Part shown: in pieces, positions 1,377 through 53,658 of the stretch
Position numbering within the stretch: the first letter of the stretch is position 1
How the letters are laid out: each line of letters starts with the position of its first letter
Source: Eledone cirrhosa
Lineage: Eukaryota
Length of the DNA stretch: 64,000 nucleotides
Direction: 5' to 3'
Assembly (NCBI GenBank): GCA_964016885.1
Contig: OZ024747.1
Location: 14,322,001 to 14,386,000, forward strand
Notes under the pieces: model-generated
Seen by the model: only the letters and a program-made list of their open reading frames with translations
Database searches by the model: none
What the model was told of the DNA's origin: nothing
Position numbers and translations under genes: made by a program

Positions 1377-1400
1377 GTGCCTTTTCTCTTCACCACCAAC

Positions 1401-4400
1401 ATGGCTATGCTAAGAGTAGGCTGTTTAAATGCGCGTGGCCTGGGCTCAACTTGGAAGCAAGCAATGCTTCTAAATGACCTCAGGTCACAACGTATAGATG
1501 TGATGGTTATTTGCGAGGCCCGGATCAGCAACGTGCGACAGCTGGCCCCCACCTTTGATGACTTTGAGATGCACGCATCTCTCTGTCAGCCTGGAGGTGG
1601 GGGTGGAGTTGTCGTTCTGCTGCAAAAACATCTGGGTCTCGCAACACAGATGGTACATTTGGACCCGGAGGGTCGACTAGTGGTTCTGGACCTTGGCAGT
1701 GGTAAAGGCGGAGCGTTTAGGTTGGTAGCCGCCTACGGCCCTTTCGGGTCAATGCGGCCGGACTTCTTCCATCGTCTGGAGACTTTTCTAGGGACGTCCC
1801 GCTCCTTGCTATTAGTGGGGGACTGGAATGGTATCCTAGATGCACGCTGGGACTACGTAGGGGCCTGCCCCGATAGAGAGGGGTGTAATAGCCTCAAAGG
1901 GTTAATCGGTCGATTTGACCTGGCCGATAGATATCGACTAGATTTTCCGACTGCGCCAACCTGGACTTGGGCAAATCGTAGCGGATCATCTAGGTCGTAC
2001 CTAGATAGGTTCTTAGTTAGAATTAAGGATAAGGACTTTTTAAGTTGTCCAAAAATGCGCATTGTTGGCTATTCAGACCACAAATTAGTGACCTGCATGG
2101 TCAACCTTGACAGAACTCATAGACAGGGCCCCGGTTACTGGAAGCTCAACTTGTCCTTGCCGGCAAGTAGAGCCTACAGGAATCGGATTAGTACGTTAGT
2201 TAAGGAACGGTTGACTGGAGCGATCGTCAACAGCAGGTGGTGGGTATCTCTAAAGAGAGAGATTAGAGTAGTCTCGATAGAATTTAGTAAGGTTCTAGCT
2301 GCGGATAGGAATAGGAAGGAAAGGGAGCTAATAGATAGAGTAGAAGAGGCAATTAGAAGCGGCGACGTGGCCAGAGTGCTAGCGTCGAGAACGGCTTTGA
2401 GCCAGTTTTTCGACGCGAAGCACGAAGGCTGCGTTGTCCGAAGTAAAATACGTGCTCTAGGGAACGAGGGGACCAAAGCTGTTAGCTGGGCCCGCGTGAC
2501 AGAGGCCAACAGTGGAACTAAATCCACCATCCGGTCTTTGCGAGACCTGGATGGACGGGCGATTCTTGAGCCTAAGCAGATGTGTGAGGCCTTTCAAAGG
2601 CACTTTGCCCGACTGTTCGGGAGGGGCGGGGAGCCGGTTGGGAACGTGGACTTCGGTCCATACCTCGACGGCCTGCCGCGCCTCTCGGACAGGGAGGCGA
2701 AGTCCTGCGAGGAGCCGATTTCGGCCGCTGAGATAGAGGACGTGCTGAGCCAATGCGGCAAACGCAAATCCCCGGGTCTCGATGGTCTTCCTTACGAATT
2801 ATATCTAGCTATGCCGGACTTGTTCCCCGATCTCCTCGAGGCGGTCTACTGCAACTGGCAACAGAACGGGAGAATTCCCTGTACTGTGACCAAGGGCGTA
2901 GTCACGCTAGTGAGGAAGGACGAGAACAAGGGGGACGAAATAAGTAACTTCAGGCCCATAACACTGCTAAATACAGAGTTACAGATTTTGGCCAAGGTGC
3001 TAGCAAAGAGGTTGGCGCTTGTCGTGGGCAACCTGGTGGGAGATGCGCAGACATGCGCTATCCCGTCCAGGTCCATCCATGACAACCTCCACCTCATGCG
3101 ATACATCATAGAGAGGGTTGGGAACGAACCCGGCTTTGGTGGGGCTCTGATCAACTTGGATCAATCTAAGGCGTTCGATAGGGTCGACCATGGTTACCTG
3201 GATGCGGTGCTAGCGGCGGCAGGCTTCGGACCCGTTTTCAGGGGCTGGATCACTGCTATGCACAGCAGCCGCATCTGCTCTAGGGTCAAGGTGAACGGCT
3301 ACCTCTCGGAGCCGTTCAAAATCGCGCGGTCCATCCGACAAGGGTGCCCTCTCTCCTCCCTTCTGTATGTATTGACTCTCGAGCCACTACTGCGGAAGTT
3401 GGAGTTGTTGCAGGGCATCCCTTTGGAACCGGGATTGCGGAAAGCGGTGTCGGCCTACGCCGATGACGTGACAGTAATGGTGTCGACGGCCTCCGAAATC
3501 GAGGCGGTCGGCACCTTACTGGAGGAGTACGAAAAGTTCACAGGGGCTAAGCTGAACCGGGACAAGTCGATCGGTTTGCAACTCGGCACGTGGAGGGGCA
3601 GACCGATGCCCTCCGATAGCGTCGTCGGACGCTGGACGGAGGGCCCGGTGAAGTTGCTCGGGGTCTGGTTCGGACCGGACCTCCAGGTGGAGAAAAACTG
3701 GGCGGAGGTTACGAACAGAGTGTTTGCACTGACCCAGAAGTGGGCCAGTTGCAAACTATCCCTGAAAGGTCGGGCGGAGGTGGCGAACACCTACATAGCG
3801 TCCGTCATCTACTACCGCCTGACCGTAGTGCCCTGCCCAAGGGAAACCCTCACCAAGATGGAGCGCGCGCTCTTCCAATTCCTTTGGAAGAGGCGGGCTC
3901 CTATGGTGAGGAGATCCATCTGCTGTCAACACCCTTCGAAAGGAGAGCTGGGGATGCCGTGGCTAATGATGCGTAAACACGCATTAAGGCTACGGCACCT
4001 CTACGTATTCCTCACCGGACAACCGGTGTGGGCCTCGTTTGTGAGACGAACCTTTCCCAGACTCGTCTCACTCACCGAGCTGCAATCCTGGGTCAAGCAA
4101 AGACCGAGAAAACTGGGCGCCTGGCACACTGAGTGTGCCCAGGCGCTCACCGCCCTCTGGCAGGCGGATCCGGTTATCAGTGGAGACTCCACCGCAACAT
4201 TCTATAGAGGGCTGGTACACAGCAGGTGCGACGACGCCCTCGGAGAAGCCCTAGACATGGAGGAGGACGAACTGGCCAGCCTTTTCGGTAGGACATTCAG
4301 CCCGGGACCTATGGACAACTTCCAGAAGTCCCTGGCCTGGCAGTGCTACCGAGGGGCTTTACCCGTTCGAGAAAGGCTCTACAGACACGGGCGCCCGGGT

Positions 4401-4838
4401 AGGGACCCCGCCAAAAAGATCTGTCCCAGATGCGTGTGCGACGAGGAAACCGTTGCACACGCATTAGTACACTGCTCGGGCGTAGCCGATCTGTGGGGCT
4501 ATGTCGAACAACTGCTGTCAAGGGTGGGACCGATCCGGTTGACCACCGAGTCTATTGTAATGATCAAGCCGCCTCCCCCCTTCAAAGATGAAGCAGAGGC
4601 GGTGTTTCTGTGCGTAATAGCCATGGCGAAAGAGGTTGTATGGTGGACGCGTCTGAAAGGACTGAGGTCGGGCACCTTTCTCTCTGGCCAACAACTGGTC
4701 CGTTTCTTCCGATATCATTTCGGAAGAAGGATCAGGATGGAGAGAGAGGTGCTGCACCCCAGCCGTTTCTATGAAAGATGGGTGAAAGTGGCGAGAATGG
4801 CCCGTGTGAATGGGCCTTCACTCTACATCAGACTATAG
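1401..4838 (+). CDS. LINE ORF2: APE endonuclease, reverse transcriptase and C-terminal zinc finger
   Basis: APE motifs LNARGL, CE, AYGP, GDWN, YLDRF, SDH. RT motifs KSPGLDG, FRPITLLN, LDQSKAFDRVDH, RQGCPLS, YADD. C-terminal CPRC-x8-H-x4-C. No stops. First ATG at 1401; frame open from 1377. Confidence 0.96.
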   Translation: MAMLRVGCLNARGLGSTWKQAMLLNDLRSQRIDVMVICEARISNVRQLAPTFDDFEMHASLCQPGGGGGVVVLLQKHLGLATQMVHLDPEGRLVVLDLGSGKGGAFRLVAAYGPFGSMRPDFFHRLETFLGTSRSLLLVGDWNGILDARWDYVGACPDREGCNSLKGLIGRFDLADRYRLDFPTAPTWTWANRSGSSRSYLDRFLVRIKDKDFLSCPKMRIVGYSDHKLVTCMVNLDRTHRQGPGYWKLNLSLPASRAYRNRISTLVKERLTGAIVNSRWWVSLKREIRVVSIEFSKVLAADRNRKERELIDRVEEAIRSGDVARVLASRTALSQFFDAKHEGCVVRSKIRALGNEGTKAVSWARVTEANSGTKSTIRSLRDLDGRAILEPKQMCEAFQRHFARLFGRGGEPVGNVDFGPYLDGLPRLSDREAKSCEEPISAAEIEDVLSQCGKRKSPGLDGLPYELYLAMPDLFPDLLEAVYCNWQQNGRIPCTVTKGVVTLVRKDENKGDEISNFRPITLLNTELQILAKVLAKRLALVVGNLVGDAQTCAIPSRSIHDNLHLMRYIIERVGNEPGFGGALINLDQSKAFDRVDHGYLDAVLAAAGFGPVFRGWITAMHSSRICSRVKVNGYLSEPFKIARSIRQGCPLSSLLYVLTLEPLLRKLELLQGIPLEPGLRKAVSAYADDVTVMVSTASEIEAVGTLLEEYEKFTGAKLNRDKSIGLQLGTWRGRPMPSDSVVGRWTEGPVKLLGVWFGPDLQVEKNWAEVTNRVFALTQKWASCKLSLKGRAEVANTYIASVIYYRLTVVPCPRETLTKMERALFQFLWKRRAPMVRRSICCQHPSKGELGMPWLMMRKHALRLRHLYVFLTGQPVWASFVRRTFPRLVSLTELQSWVKQRPRKLGAWHTECAQALTALWQADPVISGDSTATFYRGLVHSRCDDALGEALDMEEDELASLFGRTFSPGPMDNFQKSLAWQCYRGALPVRERLYRHGRPGRDPAKKICPRCVCDEETVAHALVHCSGVADLWGYVEQLLSRVGPIRLTTESIVMIKPPPPFKDEAEAVFLCVIAMAKEVVWWTRLKGLRSGTFLSGQQLVRFFRYHFGRRIRMEREVLHPSRFYERWVKVARMARVNGPSLYIRL

Positions 4839-5100: not shown

Positions 5101-5480
<380 letters not shown>

Positions 5481-5620
5481 GGATGGGAGGGAGAAGATAT
5501 ACCCACTCTCATATGTAGACATATACAGTCGTTAGAAAGTCGGATTGAATACTTTGCGAAACTGGTTCCGAATATTTCCGCTCTGATTTCAAATCCCGTC
5601 GAAGTCAACTTCGCAAGTTC

Positions 5621-6985
5621 AATATCACTTACTATCCCCTCTTCTATATCACTTTCTATCCCCTCTTCTATATCACTTACTATCCCCTCTTCTATATCAC
5701 TTACTATCCCCTCTTCTATATCACTTACTATCCCCTCTTCTATATCACTTTCTATCCCCTCTTCTATATCACTTACTATCCCCTCTTCTATATCACTTTC
5801 TATCCCCTCTTCTATATCACTTACTATCCCCTCTTCTATATCACTTTCTATCCCCTCTTCAATATCACTTACTATCCCCTCTTCAATATCACTTTCTATC
5901 CCCTCTTCTATATCACTTTCTATCCCCTCTTCAATATCACTTACTATCCCCTCTTCAATATCACTTTCTATCCCCTCTTCTATATCACTTTCTATCCCCT
6001 CTTCTATATCCCTTACTATCCCCTCTTCTATATCACTTTCTATCCCCTCTTCAATATCACTTACTATCCCCTCTTCTATATCACTTTCTATCCCCTCTTC
6101 TATATCACTTTCTATCCCCTCTTCTATATCACTTACTATCCCCTCTTCTATATCACTTACTATCCCCTCTTCTATATCACTTACTATCCCCTCTTCTATA
6201 TCACTTTCTATCCCCTCTTCAATATCACTTACTATCCCCTCTTCAATATCACTTTCTATCCCCTCTTCTATATCACTTACTATCCCCTCTTCAATATCAC
6301 TTTCTATCCCCTCTTCTATATCACTTACTATCCCCTCTTCTATATCACTTTCTATCCCCTCTTCAATATCACTTTCTATCCCCTCTTCTATATCACTTAC
6401 TATCCCCTCTTCTATATCACTTTCTATCCCCTCTTCAATATCACTTTCTATCCCCTCTTCTATATCACTTACTATCCCCTCTTCTATATCACTTACTATC
6501 CCCTCTTCTATATCACTTTCTATCCCCTCTTCAATATCACTTTCTATCCCCTCTTCAATATCACTTTCTATCCCCTCTTCTATATCACTTACTATCCCCT
6601 CTTCTATATCACTTTCTATCCCCTCTTCAATATCACTTTCTATCCCCTCTTCTATATCACTTACTATCCCCTCTTCTATATCACTTACTATCCCCTCTTC
6701 AATATCACTTTCTATCCCCTCTTCAATATCACTTTCTATCCCCTCTTCAATATCACTTTCTATCCCCTCTTCTATATCACTTACTATCCCCTCTTCTATA
6801 TCACTTTCTATCCCCTCTTCAATATCACTTTCTATCCCCTCTTCTATATCACTTACTATCCCCTCTTCTATATCACTTACTATCCCCTCTTCAATATCAC
6901 TTTCTATCCCCTCTTCAATATCACTTTCTATCCCCTCTTCTATATCACTTTCTATCCCCTCTTCTATATCACTTTCTATCTTTCT
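5621..6985. repeat. 24-bp minisatellite, about 57 units, consensus TATCACTT(A/T)CTATCCCCTCTTC(T/A)A
   Basis: Exact 24-nt periodicity with two dimorphic positions. Produces the spurious I(E/V)SDIEEG ORF. Confidence 0.97.
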
Positions 6986-7020
6986 ATCCCTACATTCTTG
7001 CACTCTCCTTTCGAAAAAAA

Positions 7021-7669
7021 ATATGATATTCTACAAAACAACATTGAATTGAAATATTTTAATTTACAACCATAAAAATTGTGGTGGATTTATATAAATA
7101 ATCATCCATGGAGTAATTGAAATAACTGTTTCTACTTTTGGCACAAGGCCAGCAATTATCCCAGTGTATTACTGGTACTTTATTTTATCGACCCCTTAAG
7201 GATGAAAGGCAAAGTTAACCTCGGCGGGTTTTGAACTCAGTTCGTAAAGGGACGTAACTGTGCTGCAAAGCATGGCGTCCGACCCTCTAACCGATACTGC
7301 CAATCCACCGCCCTTGGAGTAATTGAAATAACATGTGCACGTACGAGTCCACACACACACACACACACACACACATGTATATAAACGCACAGAGTTCTGA
7401 TCTAGCCTTCGAAATGGCCGGACCTCAGCCGTCGGGGTCCTGGCTCTTTTCCTATATATATAGGAAGGCTAGATCGATATATATCGAAGGCTAGATCAGA
7501 ACGCTGTGGGTTTATATGCATGTGTGTGTGTGTGTGTGTGTGTGTGGACTCGTACGTGCACACGTTTTTTCAATTACTCCATGAATGATTATTTATATAA
7601 ATCCACCACAATTTTTATGGTTGTAAATTAGAATATTTCAACTCAATGTTCTTTTGTAGAATATCATAT
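7021..7669. mobile_element. Foldback element with PLE pseudo-LTR and hammerhead 3'-half at its centre; left arm interrupted by a SINE
   Basis: 7021-7126 plus 7333-7411 is the reverse complement of ~7483-7669. The centre GAAATGGCCGGACCTCAGCCGTCGGGGTCC matches 13964-13993 and the PLE terminus near 18185-18212 (-). Confidence 0.75.
7127..7314 (-). mobile_element. tRNA-derived SINE, full length
   Basis: A-box TGGCAGTATCGG, B-box GAGTTCAAA, core TTTGCCTTTCATCCT..GGGGTCGATAAAATAAAGTACCAGT. 18-bp TSD TGGAGTAATTGAAATAAC at 7109-7126 and 7315-7332. Confidence 0.92.
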
Positions 7670-8693: not shown

Positions 8694-8736
8694 ACGCTGT
8701 ACTAGTTTCAAGCTTATTAGCTATCGTCAGCAACGT
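8694..8736 (-). ncRNA. Minimal type I hammerhead ribozyme motif with intact core
   Basis: Minus strand reads ACGUUG-CUGACGA-U AGCU AAUA AGCU U-GAA-ACUAGU-A-CAGCGU. 6-bp stem I, 4-bp stem II, palindromic stem III, GUA triplet. Confidence 0.8.
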
Positions 8737-13765: not shown

Positions 13766-13915
13766 ATTATTTATTCAAATTAATCCAACTTATTTTACTA
13801 ATGGGATAAACAATTATAAACCGTACACAGTCCGCGCTTCTTACTTTATTATAGTTTAGATTGAATGGAATTTTTTTGCCCCTCCTCCTTTGCAAGGACG
13901 CTTATTCATACATAT

Positions 13916-14077
13916 ACGGCTGAGCTCCGGCCGATTCAACAGCTAGATCCGAACGGAGCTGTTGAAACGGCCGGAACTCAGCCGTCGGGGTCCTGATTTT
14001 TCATATTACCCACTCTACTATCCCAAGTATCGAGTACTCTGGTGAGTAATGGTTTAACTAGTTTTTACCGCTTCCAT

Positions 14078-14082
<5 letters not shown>
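13916..14082 (+). mobile_element. PLE pseudo-LTR 3' end with short foldback (13916-13985) over hammerhead GAAA-stem III-GUC
   Basis: Homologous to the reverse complement of 18100-18215. Ends in (TA)n. Confidence 0.7.
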
Positions 14083-14161
<79 letters not shown>

Positions 14162-14264
14162 ATATATATATAGTGGTGGAACACTGGAAGGTAATATCCG
14201 TAGTGGTAGAGCACTCAGTCCATGGGACGAGTTAGGTAGAAGTGGTTACACAACAGTTAGTTCA

Positions 14265-14314
14265 CCATACCGAGAACAATTGTTTCACCTTAGCGGATCC
14301 TCAGCTCGGAATGG
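14265..14314 (-). ncRNA. Type I hammerhead motif, mirror copy in the left palindrome arm
   Basis: Reverse complement of 14488-14537. Confidence 0.75.
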
Positions 14315-14487
14315 ACATGGTTATAGGAACAGGAAGGACAACCGTAAGAACGCGCATGCGCAGAAACCCGGTCACTTCACACAGGCAATACTAGACTGCG
14401 TGCGAGTCTAGTATTGCCTGTGTGAAGTGAACGGGTTTCTGCGCATGCGCGTTCGTACGGTTGTCCTTCCTGTTCCTATAACCATGT

Positions 14488-14537
14488 CCATTCCGAGCTG
14501 AGGATCCGCTAAGGTGAAACAATTGTTCTCGGTATGG
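14488..14537 (+). ncRNA. Minimal type I hammerhead ribozyme motif
   Basis: CCAUUCCGAG-CUGAGGA-UCCGCUAAGGU-GAA-ACAAUUGU-U-CUCGGUAUGG. Stem I pairs 9/10, palindromic stem III, GUU triplet. Confidence 0.75.
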
Positions 14538-14642
14538 TGAACTAACTGTTGTGTAACCACTTCTACCTAACTCGTCCCATGGACTGAGTGCTCTACCACT
14601 ACGGATATTACCTTCTAGTGTTCCACCACTATATATATATAT

Positions 14643-15037
14643 ATGGCGGACCGTTTTGCTGAGCATTTGAGGGACATACGACTCGGTTTGGATACTCCTG
14701 TCGCCCGTCATTTCTGTTCTCCTGGTCATTCTTCCCAACATGTTACAGTCCTGGGTGTCCTTTTACATCATGGATCACAGGCTTCGCGCACCAGGACTGA
14801 ACAAAGTCTGATTCACCGCGTTGGGTCCTATTCCCCTCTTGGACTCAACACACCTCCCCAATTTCTGTAATACCCCGTCCATTATCACCCGCACTTGTAC
14901 ATTTACCCCTGGATTCCTATCGCTCTCTCTTGATCATTAACATCTTCTCTTACAACTAATACAGACATCAAGCGTTAACCTAATATATCCCTTCCATATA
15001 CTGTACTGATTGTGTTGTTATTTCTGTTTACCTTTTA
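14643..15037 (+). mobile_element. 5'-truncated Penelope-like element: C-terminal part of GIY-YIG endonuclease plus 3' tail
   Basis: ORF 14643-14870 DRFAEHLRDIR..PVARHF...H....R...E..LI......PLGLN is the typical PLE endonuclease C-terminus. Confidence 0.85.
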
Positions 15038-15060
15038 CACACACACACACACACATACAT

Positions 15061-15099
<39 letters not shown>

Positions 15100-17224
15100 C
15101 ATTAGGTATTCTTAGATATTCAACCTAATTTAATACCTAATATCTGACTCTGTATCTAACGAATTAACTCAGCGAGACACGACATTTTTCTATGGATTTC
15201 ACTGGATTACTCGCCATCAGATTACATCAGGGTTCTATCTACGCTACGGTCCCCACCACGAAGGGTAGACCACACCGAAGAAAAAAATATATATATACCT
15301 GTATATGTGTGTATATATTCATTACTGCCTTGTTCACCCAGCCTCCCCAATACCAATCAATAACCAGTGAATTTATTTATACGAAGTAGATAGGATGATG
15401 GTGACAAATTTCATCTCATTTTTGCTTACAGCTTGTATTACCAAAATGAATACTTCCCTCCCGCTTTCTCTACCTTCTCCCTCTCTAATTTCTCCTTCTT
15501 CAACATTCCCTTACTCTGTTTCTCTATCCCTCTTTCTCATAACCTTCCTTTAACATGGGGTTCAATACTCAAATATAATTTTACAATTCTAATGCGTGAT
15601 GGTTGTATCTGGAATCGATTTCATCATATAACTGGCTTGACTTTAGAATTAACTGATTATAGATTGATTTCAAAACTAAACTAAAAATGAAAACTGCGAG
15701 GAGAATTTTCGTTTACATTAACTAATTAATTAATTTATTTATGCATTTTCTCACCAGCGCCCTGTAATCTTTTATGCGGTTGTTCGAAGCAAAGAGGGAG
15801 CTACCAGCCATCGGGAGAGGGTCTCTATACAGTCTATTGAACTGCTAGAAATAATAGCTAAATATCGCTCAAATCCCATTATGTGAACGATACAGTGGAC
15901 AAAGATTTCTTCGATATATTAAACAATAACAACAAGCAATATAGTTCTGATTGGAATGTCTTTAATCATAGATGTGTTCATTCACAGAAAGCCTGGGGCT
16001 AAACAACAACAACAACCCAACCGAACCACTCTACACCACACTCCACTCTAAAAGTGTCCCCCCCGCTAATAGCCATTTTGCCATTGTGTTACCAAATTCT
16101 CTACCATTCTTTTTACCTGCTGTGTTCCCTTTCCCTTTCCTATTCAATCTCAATATCTGCACATAACATACTTACGTACTTACCTTCTCTTTCACTCAAT
16201 TTTCAATTCTATATTTTTGCTATATTGTTCGTTCTTCTTTCCTTATCTGTTCCTGTCTTTATCTTACTACGCATTACTAAAGGCGGCGAATTGACAGAGT
16301 GGTTAGAGTGTTATGTAGAATTCCTTGTAGAATCTATCAAGCTCTTCCCCAGCCATCAGAGTTCACTATCGCAGACCTCTGCTTTGCCTTTCACAAATAA
16401 ATATATCTATATATGATTAAGTCAATAAAGTTAAGTAAATTGGATAAAGTATAGTAATTCATACTATTCTAAAAACCATCACTAAGTAGAAACCACTCTC
16501 CCCCTACGGGCATCTGACGCTGCACCCCAGGTCTGAACACGGAAGAGCCAAACTCCCACTGTCATTTAGTAATCTAGGTAAATGCTGTGGCAGTTTGATA
16601 ATTTCACTTCAGCATCCAAGTGGGATGAAACAGAACTAGTTCTGTAAATATAGAATTGATAAATTGAAGAGCCGAACTTCCACTGTCATCGCCTCCATCT
16701 CTCTCGCCCTCCCCATCTCTCTGTATTATGAGCAAATGGGGTCCTACGTACTGGCCTCCCCACGGCCCCGGCGGACAGAATGGAGAAGGCGAAAAGGGCC
16801 TGTAATTCCTGATGAAGTTGTAGGGACGCCGTTGTGACATACGTGGTAACTTGGGTACATTAATCTTGTTGGAGCCCATCCCCTATCCAGGTCTAAAAAA
16901 CAGCCGATCTCTTCCAGAGAAAGAGAGTGATATTGAGAAAGATCTATATAGAGAGAAAAATCGAACCGATCCTCGTATTGCAAAAATCCATTGAATCAAA
17001 CCTGACTTGAGGCTACACAGCCACCTTAACAACAACAACAACAGCAACAACACCACCAACAACAATATTAATTGCATCAGCAACAGCAACAACTACAAGA
17101 GTACGTCTTACGTACTCGTTGGACCTATTCTGTTAGAAAGATCTGTCAACAGCAACAGTAGCAACAACAACAACAACAATAACAGTAATAACAACACCAA
17201 GCATGAGATGACTTTTCACTGAAT

Positions 17225-18094: not shown

Positions 18095-20602
18095 AAGGAA
18101 TTGTGGTAAGGGACCAGATGGACCATAACGCACCAGAGTACTCAATACTTAGGGTAGGAGAGTGGGAAATAGGAAAAAGTATGATCCCGACGGCAGAGCT
18201 CAAGCCGTTTCGGCGGCTATTTCTGGACTAAATTAGAATTCTTAGCCTGGTGAATAAATAGCCGAACTTGTCAAGGGTGTACTTCCTTATATGGGAAGAT
18301 TGTAGTTGTCAAGAGGATTGGTTAAAATTTGTTGTAAACACAAATAAGTCTATCATGGCATTTGGAGGGAGGTAGGGGTGGCTGAACTTGCCTGTATAAC
18401 AATAGGGGAGTGAGTGGAGCGGTCAAGCGTTGAAAGCGATATGTATACAGCAGATTCTAAGGATAGTGTATGAAATGGAGAAGGGAGGTTATAGAATAGG
18501 TAAATCGAATGAGAGTGGGAGACTATAAAAGATAATAGAAAGAAATAACAAAATTTCACACCCATCACTGACCAGGAAAGAAATATCATTCCCCACGCCA
18601 GGAAGACAGTCCTACTTTTCGACAACTCCAAGTGGATAAAGAGAGCTCCCGACTCCCCCTTCGACGTCAGTATGGGCGCAACAGATTCGGCTGAGGTCAC
18701 AGATCTTATAGGATTATTCCTACTATTTAAACTCGCCGAAATGTTTCCTGCATTCGGCAGTGGATTGTAACACAGGATGATGGGCTCCTCACCCGAAAAG
18801 GGTACAGCCCCAATAGTACAGACCGGGTCCGTACTTCTTCCGGGACTGGGAATTTAAAATCACCCTACTAACGTCCCTAACCCGAGTCAATTTCCTGGAC
18901 GTTACATTTAATCTCGAAAATGATTTGTACTACCCATACAGGAAACCAAACGACAACCTGCACTACATCCACCGCCGCTCTACCCATCCTAGAAACATCA
19001 CCAATAACCTGGTTAAAAACATCTCCCTCCGCATATCTTGTTTGTCCGCTAATGTGCAGATATTCGACGAACACGCGCCGCATTACAACCAGGCCCTGAA
19101 GTGGAGTGGCTTCCGGGAAGAAATATCCTTTTATCCAGCTTCCATTAGCGGAACCAGCAGGCGATACTGCCGCTCACGCAACGTAACGTGGTTCAATCCT
19201 CCCCATAATGCCGAGGTGGCAACACCTATCGGGAAAATCTTCTTATAGACTCCTCGAAAAACACTTCCCACTATAACACCGCTACCACAACATAATCAAC
19301 AAAAACACCATAAAACCTTCCTACAGCACCACACCTAACTTTTCACAAAACATCATCTCCTTAAACAACAAAAAACTCGCCCCATATGGAAGAAATAACA
19401 TAGACATCAGTGGAGAGCCGACCAGGAGGTGTAACTGCCCTGATAGATCTACGTTCCCCCTCAACAACAAATGCCGAGAACATAACGTGATCTACCAGTG
19501 CAACGTGAGGACGGACACCTCCAACAAAGCTTATATAGGATTAACCGCGTGTGACTTCAAGACCCGGCTCCACCAACACAGACATACTTTCCTAAACCCT
19601 GTCCGGCGATATGCCACTACACTTTCGGGCCACATCTGGGACCTCCAAGATAATAATATAACCTACAATCTCACTTGGAGCTTACTGTCCAGAATTAACT
19701 CTTACACGGGAGGACGCCGTCCGTGTAACTTCTGCTCGGAGGAAACATTACAAATGCTGTTTTCGAAGGACCAACTCCTAAACAAGAAAGACGAACTGGT
19801 AACCGCATGCAAACACAGATTGCGTAGGACTTACCTCGCCCTCAAACCCCATAACGACCCGGGTGGGTAGACAAGGGCTGATAACCCCCCCCCACTTGCC
19901 GAATATAGTTAGAGGAAACCCCAGATTACATAGGTAGAGGCATCTCTTTTCTTTTCCTCTTTGTCTTCTTCCCCCTGTCTCATCCTATCACTTACTTCCA
20001 CCCCCTATTTTCTTCATCGTCTGCTTTTCCCCTTTCGCCTACCCCGATGCAACCCATCGGGCCTCTGTAGCATCAGTTCCCCTACCCCTGTAGTTCTAAG
20101 ATAGAATTGGCCGAATACGTTTTATTAACTACTTATAGCAGATGTGTTAAACCCCTTTTATTTTGTTTCAGTTTTGTTACTACTCAATTTCTACAAGTTT
20201 TTTTCACTTCTCAATTTTTAACCTGTCATTGTAAGATAGCATTGTGATTTTTTTTATTCATTTCTCACTATCTAATTTTATATATTTTTTTTATTTCTTT
20301 CTATTATCTTTTATAGTCTCCCACTCTCATTCAATTTACCTATCCTATAACCTCCCTTCTCCACTTCATACACTGTCCTTAGAATCTATTGTATACATAT
20401 TACTTTCAACGCTTGACCGCTCCACTCACTTCCCTATTGTTCTATAGGCAAGTTCAGCACCCCCCCCCCCTACCTCCCTCCAAATGCCATGATAGACTTA
20501 TTTGTGTTTACAACAAATGTTAACCAATCCTCTTGACAACTACAATCTTCCCATATAAGGAAGTACCCCCTTGACAAGTTCGGCTATTTATTCACCAGGC
20601 TA
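18095..20602 (+). mobile_element. Penelope-like element (Naiad-like), 5'-truncated, with upstream inverted pseudo-LTR
   Basis: 18244-18553 is an inverted copy of 20284-20602. Broken coding region between the two. Confidence 0.9.
18555..19870 (+). pseudogene. Frameshifted PLE RT C-terminal half plus GIY-YIG endonuclease
   Basis: FDVSMGATDSAEVTDLIGLFLL, disrupted GLYRDDG, VNFLDVTFNL, PYRKPND..YIH..S.HP, VTWFNPP, CNC..PL..C..VIY..YIG, C..C..E..LLNKKDEL...CKH. Confidence 0.9.
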
Positions 20603-45138: not shown

Positions 45139-47888
45139 GGTCTAAGTGGACGTATTTTGCTAGCTCACAGTAAGTCGCTTTATTTGCCTGTTAAAATTAT
45201 CTGTTGTTAAATATTTCTTGTTGTGTAAGGGTTATAAGCCTTTAGACTTTGTCCCGTGAAGGGCAAAATATAATATTTGGGCCTTTTGGCCCAAATATTT
45301 GAACTTTTTTTTACATGTTAAAACATTTACGAAGAAAAAAAAACATGACTGAACCACGCCCCCCCATCGATATGTCGGCTGTCGTGCGACAACGAAGTAG
45401 AAGTTGAGAGGAGCGCTACAGCGAAATTAACACACATTGATAACACAAACACCACCACAAACAAGGTAACCAAAGACACCAATGATACCAATAAGAACAC
45501 TAATTTTGAAAAAAATGACAGTAACAGCGACAACGAAAATACAGATAACAAAAAAACAAACAACAATATCAACACCACTAACGTGAAAACAAATAGCGAC
45601 AACACCAACAACAACAATACCAACTGCACCGAGAACAACGGTGACAGCAAAGACAACAATGATAACAGCGACAGTGCTAACAACATCACCAACAAGAACA
45701 ACGACAACAAAACCCCCAACGAAAACAAGAAGAACAGTTTCGCTGCGGCAGCAGTAAAAAAGAGGCCATGTTTCAACATGGACCTCTCAAACAAAGATGA
45801 AAAGTTGGCCCAGGCATGGAAGCTCATCAAGCAAGAGCAAACTTGGGCCAACTTAACTGTTCCGGTAGAAGCTATTGAGGCAGTGGAGCGCAAAACGGTG
45901 CATTATAGATGCATCTCAGCACAATCCAAAAGGGCAGCTTTAATCCCACAAGATGTCGAAGTCGCGCTGAGATGCATCAGAGAAGACAGTACATAGAGAG
46001 GGGCAGACAGTACAGCACCATTTCGGTGTTGTTCAAGTCAGAAGCCCTCGCTATGAAACACGCTATAGCTCCTTGCAAAACCAGCAAGGTCATAATGTAC
46101 CCCTCCCAGAATCCCACTAGGACTTGACATGTGGTGGCTTCTGGGATGTGTGATTGTGGAGGGGACGGATACAGTCCCTATAGAAGTGACCAGAACGGCC
46201 AGAGAACGGCTGGAGCTGTTGCAGGGCATCCCGCTCGAACCGGGACGCGGAAAGGCTGTGTCGGCTTATGCGGACGACATCACCCTGATGGTGTCGGACA
46301 CCTCAGAAATCGAGGTGGTCGGCAACTTATTGGAGGAATATGAAAGGTTGACGGAAGCAAAACTTAACCCGGAAAAGTCAGTGGGCTTGCAACTCGGCAC
46401 CTGGAGAGGCAAGTCCATGCCGTCCAACAGCGTCGTTAGGCGCTGGACGGACGGACCGGTAAAGTTGCTAGGGGTTTGGTTCGGGCCAGACCTCCAGGTG
46501 GATAATAATTGGGACGAGGTGACGGGCAGGGTAGTCAGTCTCACCCAGAAATGGGCTGGGATGAAGCTATCACTGAAAGGTCGGGTGGAGATAGCCACCG
46601 CGTACATCGCATCCGTCATCTACTACCGTCTGACTGTCGGCCCTTGCCCCCGTTCGCGTCTCGCCATCTTGGAGCGGCTCCTCTTCAAATTCTTGTGGAG
46701 GGGTCAGGTTCCGCTGGTGAGGCGGTCCATCTGCTGCCAGCACTATCTACGTGGATGGATGGGCATGCCGCGGCCAATGATGCGCAGGCACGCGCTGAGG
46801 CTGTGGCATCTCCAGATATTCTTCCTAAACGGTGAACAGGTGTGGTCGCCGTTTGTCAGACGGGCCTTTCCGCAGCTCGTTTCTTTGACTGAGTTGCAGT
46901 CAATGGTAAAGAAGAGACCGAGACTGGGTGACTGGCATCTGGAATGTTTCCAGGCACTCACTGCTCTTTACCAGGCGGGCAATGCGGTCAGTGGAACTTC
47001 CACTCTCGAGTTCTATAGAGGATTAGTGGTGGGCAAGTGCGACGACGCACTCGGAGAGGCTCTGGGAGTCAACGAAGTCGAGCTAACCAGTCTGTACCGG
47101 TGGACTTTCGAGCCGGGGACGATGGATAATTTCCAAAAATCCCTCGCTTGGCAGTGCTACCGGGGGCACTCTACAGGCACGGAAGTGCTGTCAGACGGAC
47201 CTGCCCGAGATGCGCACAGAGCGACGAAACCGTTCTGCACGCACTCCTCCAGTGTCCGTGCATTACTGACTTGTGGAGTTATGTTGAACAGCTGTTGTCG
47301 CGTGTACAACGGATCCGGCTATCGGCCGAGTCCATAGTGAAGATCGACCCGCCGCCTTCTTTTGGCCAGGAGGGGCAGGCAATTTTCCTCTGTCTGGTGG
47401 CAGTAGCGAAAGAGGTTGTATGGTGGACGAGGTTGAAAGGCCTGAAGACAGACACTTTTCTCTTCGGCCAATCCCTCATCAACTTTTTCAAGTTTCACTT
47501 GGAAAGGAAGGTGAGGGTGGAGAGAGAAGTGCTGCCCCCCAGTACATTTGCTGAAAGGTGGGTGAATGTGGCGAGAATGGCCTGTGTGAGTGGGCCTACT
47601 CTGGTCATGCGGCTGTAGGTAGGTAAATTTGAAGAGGAGAGGGGTGCCCTTCCAGGGTTCTCTCGAAGCGTCGGGTCGTTCAGGACTGGTGGGGTACCTG
47701 AGCGAACCCTAGGTGGTCATCCCCCCTATTGGGGAATGTTTTCTTGTAATTTTCTTGTTACTTTATTGTTACTTTGTTATTGTTACTTTGTTTATTGATA
47801 TTGTTTACTCGATTTTTCTGTAAAACCCCATTGTCCCAGTCTTTTGTATTGTCCCCTATATGTCGGCCCTTGTGGCCAATAAATGAAA
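45139..47888 (+). mobile_element. Internally deleted Tx1-clade LINE, relative of 1-5100, with both ends retained
   Basis: 5' UTR, ORF1 remnant (TVHYR.IS..SK..A...Q..E.., DMWWLLG) fused at ~46205 to the ORF2 C-half (LELLQGIPLEPG, YADD ... 47618). AATAAA at 47878. (ATT)n on both sides. Confidence 0.92.
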
Positions 47889-52160: not shown

Positions 52161-52229
52161 TGTATTTTATCTGATGAAAGCGCGCCAAGGTTTGCTTGGT
52201 TGCCCTTGAAATATATATAATAAAATATA
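52161..52229 (+). ncRNA. Type I hammerhead ribozyme motif, intact core, long stem II
   Basis: UGUAUUUUAU-CUGAUGA-AAGCGCGCCAAG guuug CUUGGUUGCCCUU-GAA-AUAUAUAU-A-AUAAAAUAUA. 10-bp stem I. Confidence 0.85.
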
Positions 52230-53477: not shown

Positions 53478-53514
53478 ATAATATCCAGTTCTGCGTTTGC
53501 AGATTGACTTTGTT

Positions 53515-53565
53515 AGTTTCAGAAGATCCCGTTAAGGGTGAAAGCAGCGATTCTTTGCTTAAACT
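53515..53565 (+). ncRNA. Hammerhead motif with U4-to-A core change; family also at 27243 and 42889
   Basis: AGUUU-CAGAAGA-UCCCGUUAAGGGU-GAA-AGCA gcgauucuu UGCU-U-AAACU. Confidence 0.65.
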
Positions 53566-53584
53566 TTAATCTGTTATTTTAATA

Positions 53585-53658
<74 letters not shown>

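Follow-up and report, generated by a model that had tools for sequence, protein, structure and literature searches.

A hammerhead-like palindrome in a TA repeat of Eledone cirrhosa, very probably two truncated 3′ ends of a putative Hydra-clade PLE placed head to head

The window, i.e., the whole stretch of 64,000 nucleotides that was analyzed, corresponds to C7:14322001-14386000 of an Eledone cirrhosa assembly of 2,995,841,428 bases in 1796 contigs. It contains a TA repeat with a long palindrome in its midst, whose two arms carry a hammerhead-like motif on opposite strands. The features of the locus are as follows, in window coordinates and with the source of each assignment.

14083..14172, no strand: left-hand portion of the (TA)n microsatellite taken as the target (sequence)
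14173..14406, minus strand: left copy, comprising the terminal 234 nt, all 3′ UTR, of a putative Penelope-like element (PLE), with its 3′ end at 14173 (BLAST to the long copy L032)
14265..14314, minus strand: mirror hammerhead-like motif, identical in sequence to that of the right arm (descriptor scan)
14398..14404, no strand: 7-nt center, GCGTGCG on the plus strand (continuation of the left copy)
14405..14629, plus strand: right copy, comprising the terminal 225 nt of this element, with its 3′ end ...GTTCCACCAC at 14629 (BLAST)
14488..14537, plus strand: hammerhead-like motif of type I layout (descriptor scan)
14488-14497 and 14528-14537, plus strand: helix I of this motif, with the core CTGAGGA at 14498-14504 and T at 14505
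14506-14507 and 14513-14514, plus strand: helix II (CC/GG) of this motif, with loop GCTAA, T at 14515 and GAAA at 14516-14519
14527 and 14528, plus strand: positions between which the motif's cut is predicted, next to helix III (AC/GT) with loop AATT
14566..14629, plus strand: 64-nt "tail" between the two alternative 3′ ends of the family, at distances 65 and 1 (mirror at 14173-14236)
14630..14644, no strand: (TA)7, right-hand portion of the target microsatellite (sequence)

An initial annotation of this DNA had described a near-perfect palindrome with about three mismatches and a 7-nt loop, and an inverted-repeat search together with a comparison of the arms bore this out. With their TA flanks, the arms span 14158-14397 and 14405-14644 (240 nt, 98% complementary, 7 nt apart), and without these flanks they span 14173-14397 and 14405-14629. 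They differ at 3 of 225 positions, 14431, 14455 and 14616, and are thus 1.3% apart; each difference is private to one arm, and none of the three falls within the hammerhead-like motif. Self-complementarity of the 459-bp stretch is far beyond chance. On the plus strand, the context of the apex is ...AGACT GCGTGCG AGTCT.... Folded as RNA, the palindrome forms a single hairpin (-457.9 kcal/mol) in which 224 base pairs join the two arms, and from which the rod-like read-through RNA foreseen in the annotation follows as a computed structure. As single-stranded DNA its fold energy is -297.2, and minimum-free-energy folding of the sequence just upstream of the apex gave no stable RNA structure.

The arm sequence belongs to a large family. 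Genome-wide, the 226-nt arm yielded at least 2384 first-look candidates, and the 40 that were scored were 96-100% identical to it. To examine the ends of the family, we took 28 further loci, each with 1.5 kb on either side. Every one of them has a CCACCAC-type 3′ terminus, followed in 26 by at least six TA within the next 20 nt. Homology upstream of arm position 1 varies in length and exceeds 1500 nt in four of the 28 loci. These four long copies have 2.14-2.19 kb in common, and L032 extends approximately 120 nt further. The longest copies found, which may not be full length, measure 2.14-2.3 kb, with a TA repeat upstream in L032 and L033. The arm is therefore the terminal part, on the 3′ side, of an element that bears an ORF and measures approximately 2.1-2.3 kb. 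As the stop codon of the ORF lies approximately 70 nt upstream of the arm start in long copies, both arms represent 3′ UTR, in agreement with their earlier description as non-coding. A defined 3′ end beside (TA)n combined with variable 5′ truncation is the pattern of a target-primed retroelement.

Alignment to the natural long copy L032 by BLAST placed the left copy at distances 234 to 1 from the 3′ end (98.3% identity) and the right copy at distances 225 to 1 (97.8%). The proposed insertion into (TA)n was upheld, with TA repeat on either side of the pair (14083-14172 and 14630-14644). The family has two alternative 3′ ends, at distance 1 and at distance 65-66, and the inverted partners at other loci mostly stop at the short one, with TA repeats directly after it. 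Inverted pairs normally have one end at distance 1 and the other at 65-66, which we call the long/short rule. At the window locus both arms carry the 64-nt tail; loose contig ends at 14565 and 14237 continue into (TA)n. The idea that the insertion is very recent was not sustained. The arms are 3/225 apart, and the family majority is about as close to each of them (three and two differences). Arm divergence gives no age, and conversion can also homogenize the arms of a palindrome.

We analyzed the coding capacity of the element in its longer copies. Pfam gave no match on six ORFs; the family ORF, queried at E <= 1, gave none either. Three relatives emerged from a word-indexed search of longer proteins for homology (E values of 1.8e-66 to 4.1e-59, 36-42% identity). 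Two of them, P0001 and P0003, have a C-terminal GIY-YIG match at 19.9 and 17.5 bits, respectively, which is below the Pfam cut-off of 22.6. In tblastn searches, P0001 (735 aa) aligned with the long copies from aa 55 or 95 to aa 722, at 35-40% identity and with E values down to 1.8e-132. Natural copies present, in this order, the motifs SDKTNNIYEV, YRDD, CSCRKPEAC (CxCX5C), AVIYE...SYVGMAEGRF, CGLC and CPH. The GIY-YIG-like block, read as VIY...YVG, is thus C-terminal to YRDD. A 714-aa sister ORF of the same genome has ESM Atlas neighbors with HTH_animal, DUF8422 and GIY-YIG, and RVT_1 in one cluster, which serves as a lead; PDB sequences and NCBIfam gave nothing useful for this ORF.

Hydra-clade PLEs are described as shorter than 3 kb, with a C-terminal GIY-YIG endonuclease and DKT replacing DKG, a CxCX5C linker, and CxxC and CxH motifs around conserved E and N residues, and as devoid of CCHH; the same passages report (TA)n targets and easily found hammerheads (Craig 2021, PMC8557442). 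The clade motifs DKT, CxCX5C, CxxC and CxH are all present in L033 and L034, and CCHH is absent from the family ORF as judged by eye. The RWK motif was not seen in the family copies examined, which lack the N-terminus. (TA)n follows 26 of the 28 copies, and the longest copies found are shorter than 3 kb. We therefore file the element as a putative Hydra-clade PLE, a placement made by motifs against the published list and by Atlas neighbors rather than by a tree.

The motif in each arm was found with a descriptor that requires, besides 5 bp or more in helix I, the succession CUGANGA, helix II, GAAA, helix III and H. The whole window has six matches, two in the arms and four elsewhere, versus a mean of 0.055 per shuffle in 200 block-shuffled windows, 11 of which had a match. 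This agrees with the annotated ribozyme-like motif on each strand, at 14488-14537 on the plus strand and 14265-14314 on the minus strand. Helix I, CCAUUCCGAG/CUCGGUAUGG, has 9 of 10 possible pairs. After the core CUGAGGA, the RNA continues with U, CC, the loop GCUAA, GG, U and GAA. Helix III consists of 2 bp, AC/GU, closed by a palindromic AAUU, and cleavage is predicted after GUU and before C. The conserved type I core is complete, with CUGAGGA, GAAA, the A-U closing pair and U17. Helix II is reduced to two G-C pairs, with U/U at 10.1/11.1, so that the motif lacks the stable helix II closed by G10.1-C11.1 that characterizes type I. No Rfam hammerhead model reached its gathering score in the whole window, and none matched at E <= 10 in 13800-15100 or in the 86-nt slice 14470-14555. 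The claim of a complete hammerhead in each arm thus holds for the core, helix I and helix III, and is doubtful for helix II.

The self-complementary ACAAUUGU pairs between molecules in a two-copy co-fold. Within the family, variants of the motif are changes in loops or at N7, or transitions that preserve G-U pairs, among copies that are only 2-7% apart. Two observations concern other families. A second family in the window, at 8730 on the minus strand, has U...U around a helix II of AGCU/AGCU, and in one copy the 3′ end of the sister family has a homologous motif with CAGAAGA replacing CUGANGA.

For a lone PLE min-hammerhead, in vitro cleavage was reported as undetectable, and dimers had low activity (Cervera and de la Pena 2014, PMC4209133). 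In the palindrome, where a transcript would contain a single sense copy and helices II and III have 2 bp each, we predict that the motif is inactive. The hammerhead fold amounts to -9.0 kcal/mol, versus -457.9 for the whole hairpin, and in a read-through RNA the single sense hammerhead would, according to this model, be buried in a duplex of approximately 224 bp. The suggestion that the ribozyme is self-silenced is therefore reasonable, if probably moot. We infer that the motif is the element's own 3′-UTR motif, carried as a passive passenger in each arm.

Head-to-head copies are common in this family. By mapping a long copy onto the 28 loci, we found an inverted copy directly adjoining the 5′ end in 16. 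Among the remaining 12, the 5′ end lies beyond the fetched DNA in four, and L031, which is one of these, has an inverted partner as well. When more loci were sampled with an internal query, an inverted partner was present in 10 of 25 new ones. Taken together, 26 of 53 independent loci have a 5′-truncated inverted partner, with variable junctions. The truncation points of the two members are mostly unrelated and differ by 10 to 1683 nt. Pairs that differ by at most 20 nt were 3 of 26, compared with 0.55 expected (permutation, P = 0.016), and pairs within 30 nt were 4 of 26 (P = 0.008). The enrichment of near-symmetric pairs is thus modest, at P = 0.016. The loops of near-symmetric pairs measure 5-14 nt in four cases and 0-17 nt in matches to the exact pattern described below. 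Their 3′ ends lie at distances 1 and 65 (L005), 1 and 58 (L006), 1 and 65 (L047), and 3 and 65 (L048), and at 1 and 1 in the window palindrome.

If the palindrome were a unit in its own right, whether a gene for a hairpin RNA or a miRNA-like product, a foldback DNA transposon or MITE with TA target duplication, or a retrozyme, its apex would be expected to recur. A query spanning the apex crossed the center at 2 of 39 other scored places (L047 and L048), the other 37 matching one arm only. We also searched the genome for an exact apex pattern, composed of 12 nt of inner arm, 0-30 nt and then the complement. Anchored at distance 225, the apex of the palindrome, the pattern occurs at two places, the window locus and C1:216162333; control anchors at 300, 400 and 176 gave 0, 3 and 3 places, respectively. 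The search for whole palindromes with the same apex thus returned one other exact place, no more than at controls. Truncation points in L028 (228), the L031 partner (approximately 233), L047 and L048 had hinted at a cluster at 225-241, i.e., at a hot spot or an RNA end, which these counts rule out.

A long perfect hairpin, TA on either side and weak scores with hairpin-type Rfam models can be put forward for a functional or mobile unit. These scores, for example 30.9 bits for mir-8 with its gathering score of 47, are all below gathering, and the miRNA-type ones mirror the hairpin shape only. The two exact places and the 37 single-arm matches also speak against a MITE or foldback DNA transposon, which would be a recurring fixed unit, and the arms are the ends of an element that encodes a putative reverse transcriptase. 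Non-LTR retrozymes require tandem direct repeats with hammerheads on the same strand (PMC4209133 and Li et al. 2026, in the parts that define them), and the motifs here are inverted, on opposite strands. As partners join at many positions and the apex is not favored, the palindrome does not constitute a mobile or functional unit of its own; such a role is barely conceivable. The initial annotation had itself named arms that occur only as ends of longer autonomous elements, with variable apices, as a refutation of its reading, and this is what was observed.

We then considered whether the joint exists in the genome or is an artifact, in which a long read, or the assembler, would have produced a foldback chimera where the repeat is present in many copies. 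Short-read contigs from four runs (X1-X4) are 40-130-nt pieces of the high-copy repeat, none of which crosses the apex. RAD reads of runs X21-X23 start at the GCATGC sites 14355 and 14444, and almost every one of them departs from the window at 14403-14406 and continues into upstream sequence of the family. For X21 pairs with the first mate on the minus strand, depth over the apex region is approximately 4-15 with no listed difference, as read from pooled records rather than from single reads. A 1-base deletion is present in reads over 14430 (5 of 5 in X22, 4 of 5 in X23), and it is also present in palindrome L047. The apex of the window palindrome is thus not clearly bridged among these RAD reads or contigs, as would be the case for an artifact, and PLE structures of this kind are known to trouble assemblies, as noted in the assembly-related passages of Craig 2021 (PMC8557442). 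The three differences, each private to one arm, argue against a chimera, as do similar assembled foldbacks (L005, L006, L025, L047 and L048, with six more pattern matches). In addition, a family foldback joint of another copy, from 14382 to 14404 on the opposite strand, was found in 59, 43 and 44 raw DNA reads of three runs. The presence of this joint in raw reads of three samples indicates that family foldbacks exist in DNA outside the assembly, and we regard an artifact as highly improbable.

The junction itself is informative as to how the two copies came together. The center, 14398-14404, is the family's continuing sequence on the minus strand, shared by 24-28 of the 28 copies per column. 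The AG at 14405-14406 is compatible with either copy and thus represents a 2-nt microhomology, with no filler. Both arms have T at 14487, a position occupied by C in 27 of the 28 other copies and by A in the remaining one. The center made of element sequence, the 2-nt overlap, the shared T and the absence of TA between the 5′ ends all point to a single event. This reading rests on geometry and on one shared variant, since the distance between the arms is no smaller than that from either arm to the family majority.

An alternative would be that the family inserted twice, independently, into one microsatellite, with the copies facing each other, as the locus is nested. With the hairpin of approximately 30 bp at 13914-13986 begins another high-copy repeat, of 167 nt (13916-14082), which has 4412 first-look candidates genome-wide and ends at the left (TA)n. 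The hairpin of the earlier "pseudo-LTR foldback" at 13916 is thus present, its nature as a pseudo-LTR being conjectural. On the other side, the right (TA)7 is followed at 14643-14867 by the 3′ end of a further putative PLE of high copy number, with 1975 candidates genome-wide. The segment, annotated as a GIY-YIG fragment, has no Pfam match itself; a longer copy of this element has a weak GIY-YIG match just upstream of the retained part (E = 0.027, 15.2 bits versus the cut-off of 22.6), so that the label applies, below threshold, to the element rather than to the segment. Since other repeats adjoin it on both sides, the TA repeat has been hit repeatedly. Two insertions should nevertheless have left TA repeat between the 5′ ends, where there is none. 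Their truncation points would also have come to lie only 9 nt apart with a 2-nt overlap, and T at 14487, present in none of the 28 other copies, would have to occur in both. Together with the excess of near-symmetric pairs over chance, these points make independent insertions very unlikely.

The joint might also have arisen at the DNA level, by inverted duplication of a single truncated copy through template switching during replication or through break repair mediated by a hairpin. Such a process would be helped by the CT/AG microhomology and by (TA)n, which is self-complementary, the end of the duplication would be hidden within (TA)n, and a 2-nt microhomology without filler is also typical of replication-based foldback inversions. 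Moreover, the outer ends are equal, unlike those of most retrotransposition-type pairs in the family. Against this, inverted homology ends at the element 3′ ends plus TA, short of the unique flanks, and the head-to-head pairs found family-wide at 26 of 53 loci are mostly asymmetric, as in the PLE insertion process. A DNA-level origin is hence improbable. We conclude that the palindrome very probably consists of two 5′-truncated 3′-UTR copies, of 234 and 225 nt, of a high-copy, putative Hydra-clade PLE, placed head to head in (TA)n, likely by one retrotransposition event.

Short loops, microhomology at the turn and inverted copies made during reverse transcription are features of snap-back cDNA hairpins and of twin priming. 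A retrotransposition event at this locus might have proceeded by snap-back. The putative GIY-YIG endonuclease of the element would cut the TA repeat, and the cut DNA would prime reverse transcription. Once approximately 234 nt had been synthesized, the cDNA, ending in ...CT GCGTGCG AG, would turn back on itself through the CT/AG microhomology, its last AG pairing with CT, and would then be extended with itself as template. The product would have two arms with identical outer ends and the 64-nt tail on both. Alternatively, in the same event, two cDNAs primed from the two DNA ends would be joined. In vitro, the anole PLE cuts and extends both target strands, with two reverse transcription start sites and a tail, according to the relevant passages of Frangieh 2024 (PMC11167929). 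For the window locus, we consider the chances of snap-back to be about even. The observation that L005, L006, L047 and L048 have one long and one short end argues that simple snap-back is not the general rule. That near-symmetric palindromes are records of PLE cDNA snap-back, with 0-2 nt of microhomology and a 0-15-nt loop, is a tentative proposal that we hold to be somewhat doubtful. If true, PLE integration would have in snap-back a separate kind of outcome not described until now, seeding hundreds of long-hairpin loci that would be potential sources of dsRNA on read-through. In the PLE literature that was searched we found no account of snap-back, and the papers listed for the combined topic are general reviews.

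As a discovery, the striking "ribozyme palindrome" is minor, as it is an expected scar of PLE insertion. The locus adds a well-documented, very abundant and (TA)n-specific family to the putative members of the Hydra clade. The tail, the regularity of the ends and the near-symmetric foldbacks bear on second-strand synthesis by PLEs and on the use of both cut strands, and these features could steer in vitro work like that begun for the anole element.

The family resembles the Hydra-clade PLEs of Craig, Yushenova, Rodriguez and Arkhipova (2021, PMC8557442) in being short, with a single ORF that has DKT, the CxCX5C linker, CxxC, CxH and a putative C-terminal GIY-YIG-like block, and with insertion into (TA)n, and its copy number in the thousands sets it apart from the published ones. 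The rows Hydra-1_cRog, Penelope-1_HM and Penelope-5_HM of File S2 in that work share the core ctgaNgaT...Tgaa near the 3′ end and U/U around helix II; in the Hydra-clade rows considered, helix II has 4-7 bp, unlike the 2 bp found here. Metazoan PLE hammerheads are mostly single motifs in truncated PLEs, and dual min-hammerheads 100-700 bp apart on opposite strands have been ascribed to truncated PLEs by Cervera and de la Pena (2014, PMC4209133). Like those min-hammerheads, our motif is of type I, with a tiny, dimer-suited helix III and a palindromic loop. It differs from them in its 2-bp helix II with U/U, since in theirs helix II is long, at 7-8 bp, and the pair G10.1-C11.1 is conserved.

In L1 twin priming, the inverted segments come from different parts of a single RNA, whereas both arms here are the same 3′ part. 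The sections on PLE insertion structure in Craig 2021 (PMC8557442) and Frangieh 2024 (PMC11167929) describe an inverted 5′-truncated copy alongside and a one-sided tail of 30-40 bp. The insertions of our family are alike in their heavy 5′ truncation, inverted partners (26/53), two 3′ ends and pairing of long with short; they differ in that the tail is 64 nt, and the window pair is nearly symmetric with the tail on both arms. The long/short rule matches the one-sided PLE tail of Craig 2021 and the anole reverse transcription start sites of Frangieh 2024. Head-to-head truncated PLEs, tails, (TA)n targeting and opposite-strand hammerhead pairs are thus already in print in these parts of the sources, and what may be new in detail are the family size, the 64-nt tail, the long/short rule and the near-symmetric foldbacks with microhomology.

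Head-to-head pairs of the palindrome's Hydra-clade Penelope-like element (PLE) family (loci L005-L082) were compared by distance, counted in nucleotides from the family's long 3' end, where 1 is the last base. One copy usually ended at distance 1 and its partner at 65-66, and both the long and the short ends lay directly on TA repeats. The exceptions noted were the window palindrome and L018, in which both ends are long, and L057, with ends at 28 and 66. Among single copies in a second sample, nine had the long end and four the short one. At L080 (G000:C2:158504021-158507241, locus 2400-2503), the inverted partner begins at distance 104, whereby its start falls within two bases of the point (distance 102/103) at which the hammerhead is predicted to cleave. 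This is a single case and therefore provides no evidence of cutting by the ribozyme in vivo.

Inverted pairs of the family also occur on contig C1 of the same genome (G000) near 211.67, 212.09, and 212.92 Mb, spanning about 1.3 Mb, with equal spacing (1208-1210 nt between marks). They look like one head-to-head insertion that later spread by segmental duplication. The pair at L049, one of these three places, is rearranged.

Other Hydra-type PLEs were found as follows.
L034:1877-4018, minus strand: sister family from the same genome; its uninterrupted frame of 714 aa shares 38.8% identity with P0001 (735-aa homologue of the palindrome family's ORF) over its length.
18817-19870, plus strand: further fragment in the window with two adjoining open frames, carrying CNCPDRSTFPLNNKC and NVIYQCNV...AYIGLT.
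The 3' region of the sister family contains a homologous ribozyme-like stretch in which CAGAAGA replaces CUGANGA (one copy), and the 3' end of this family recurs in the window near 53480-53590.

At least three sequence families besides that of the palindrome supply five more hammerhead-like motifs within the window.
8105, plus strand: hammerhead-like motif.
8730, minus strand: motif with helix II flanked by U...U as in the palindrome motif; helix II of 4 bp.
52171, plus strand: motif with a long, covarying helix II.
52853, plus strand: motif with a long, covarying helix II.
About 58804, minus strand: hammerhead-like motif.
Helix I of the 8730 motif shows a two-sided change relative to its copies in locus L025. 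The motifs at 52171 and 52853 lie 682 nt apart on the same strand in TA-rich DNA and may represent a retrozyme-like or tandem PLE arrangement.

Elsewhere in the window, a 1153-aa open frame (1377-4838, plus strand) looks by eye like a putative non-LTR retrotransposon ORF2 (endonuclease and RT), and a related fragment lies at 46096-47618 (plus strand). A 24-nt tandem repeat of about 1.7 kb (5258-7075) has several frames without stops (reading SDIEEGIE... on the minus strand).

The palindrome is flanked by two high-copy repeats.
13916-14082, plus strand: 167-nt repeat, 4412 first-look candidates in the genome.
14643-14966, plus strand: 3' end of a second PLE distinct from the palindrome family, 1975 first-look candidates, 89-96% identical.
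Scored copies of the 167-nt repeat are 84-90% identical, and nearly all have the same start base. The repeat starts with a hairpin of ~30 bp (13914-13986), its 3' limit is exactly the (TA)n border, and inspection revealed no hammerhead core. This repeat may be a short non-autonomous element sharing its target with the palindrome's PLE. No hammerhead core was seen in the 3' UTR of the second PLE either. A longer copy of the latter (L043:1600-2271, minus strand), with a weak Pfam GIY-YIG match (E 0.027), has a CX..CxxC linker and VVYALRC...YIGQT with internal cysteines. By the motifs of this copy, the endonuclease is of the canonical (Neptune-like) type rather than the Hydra type.
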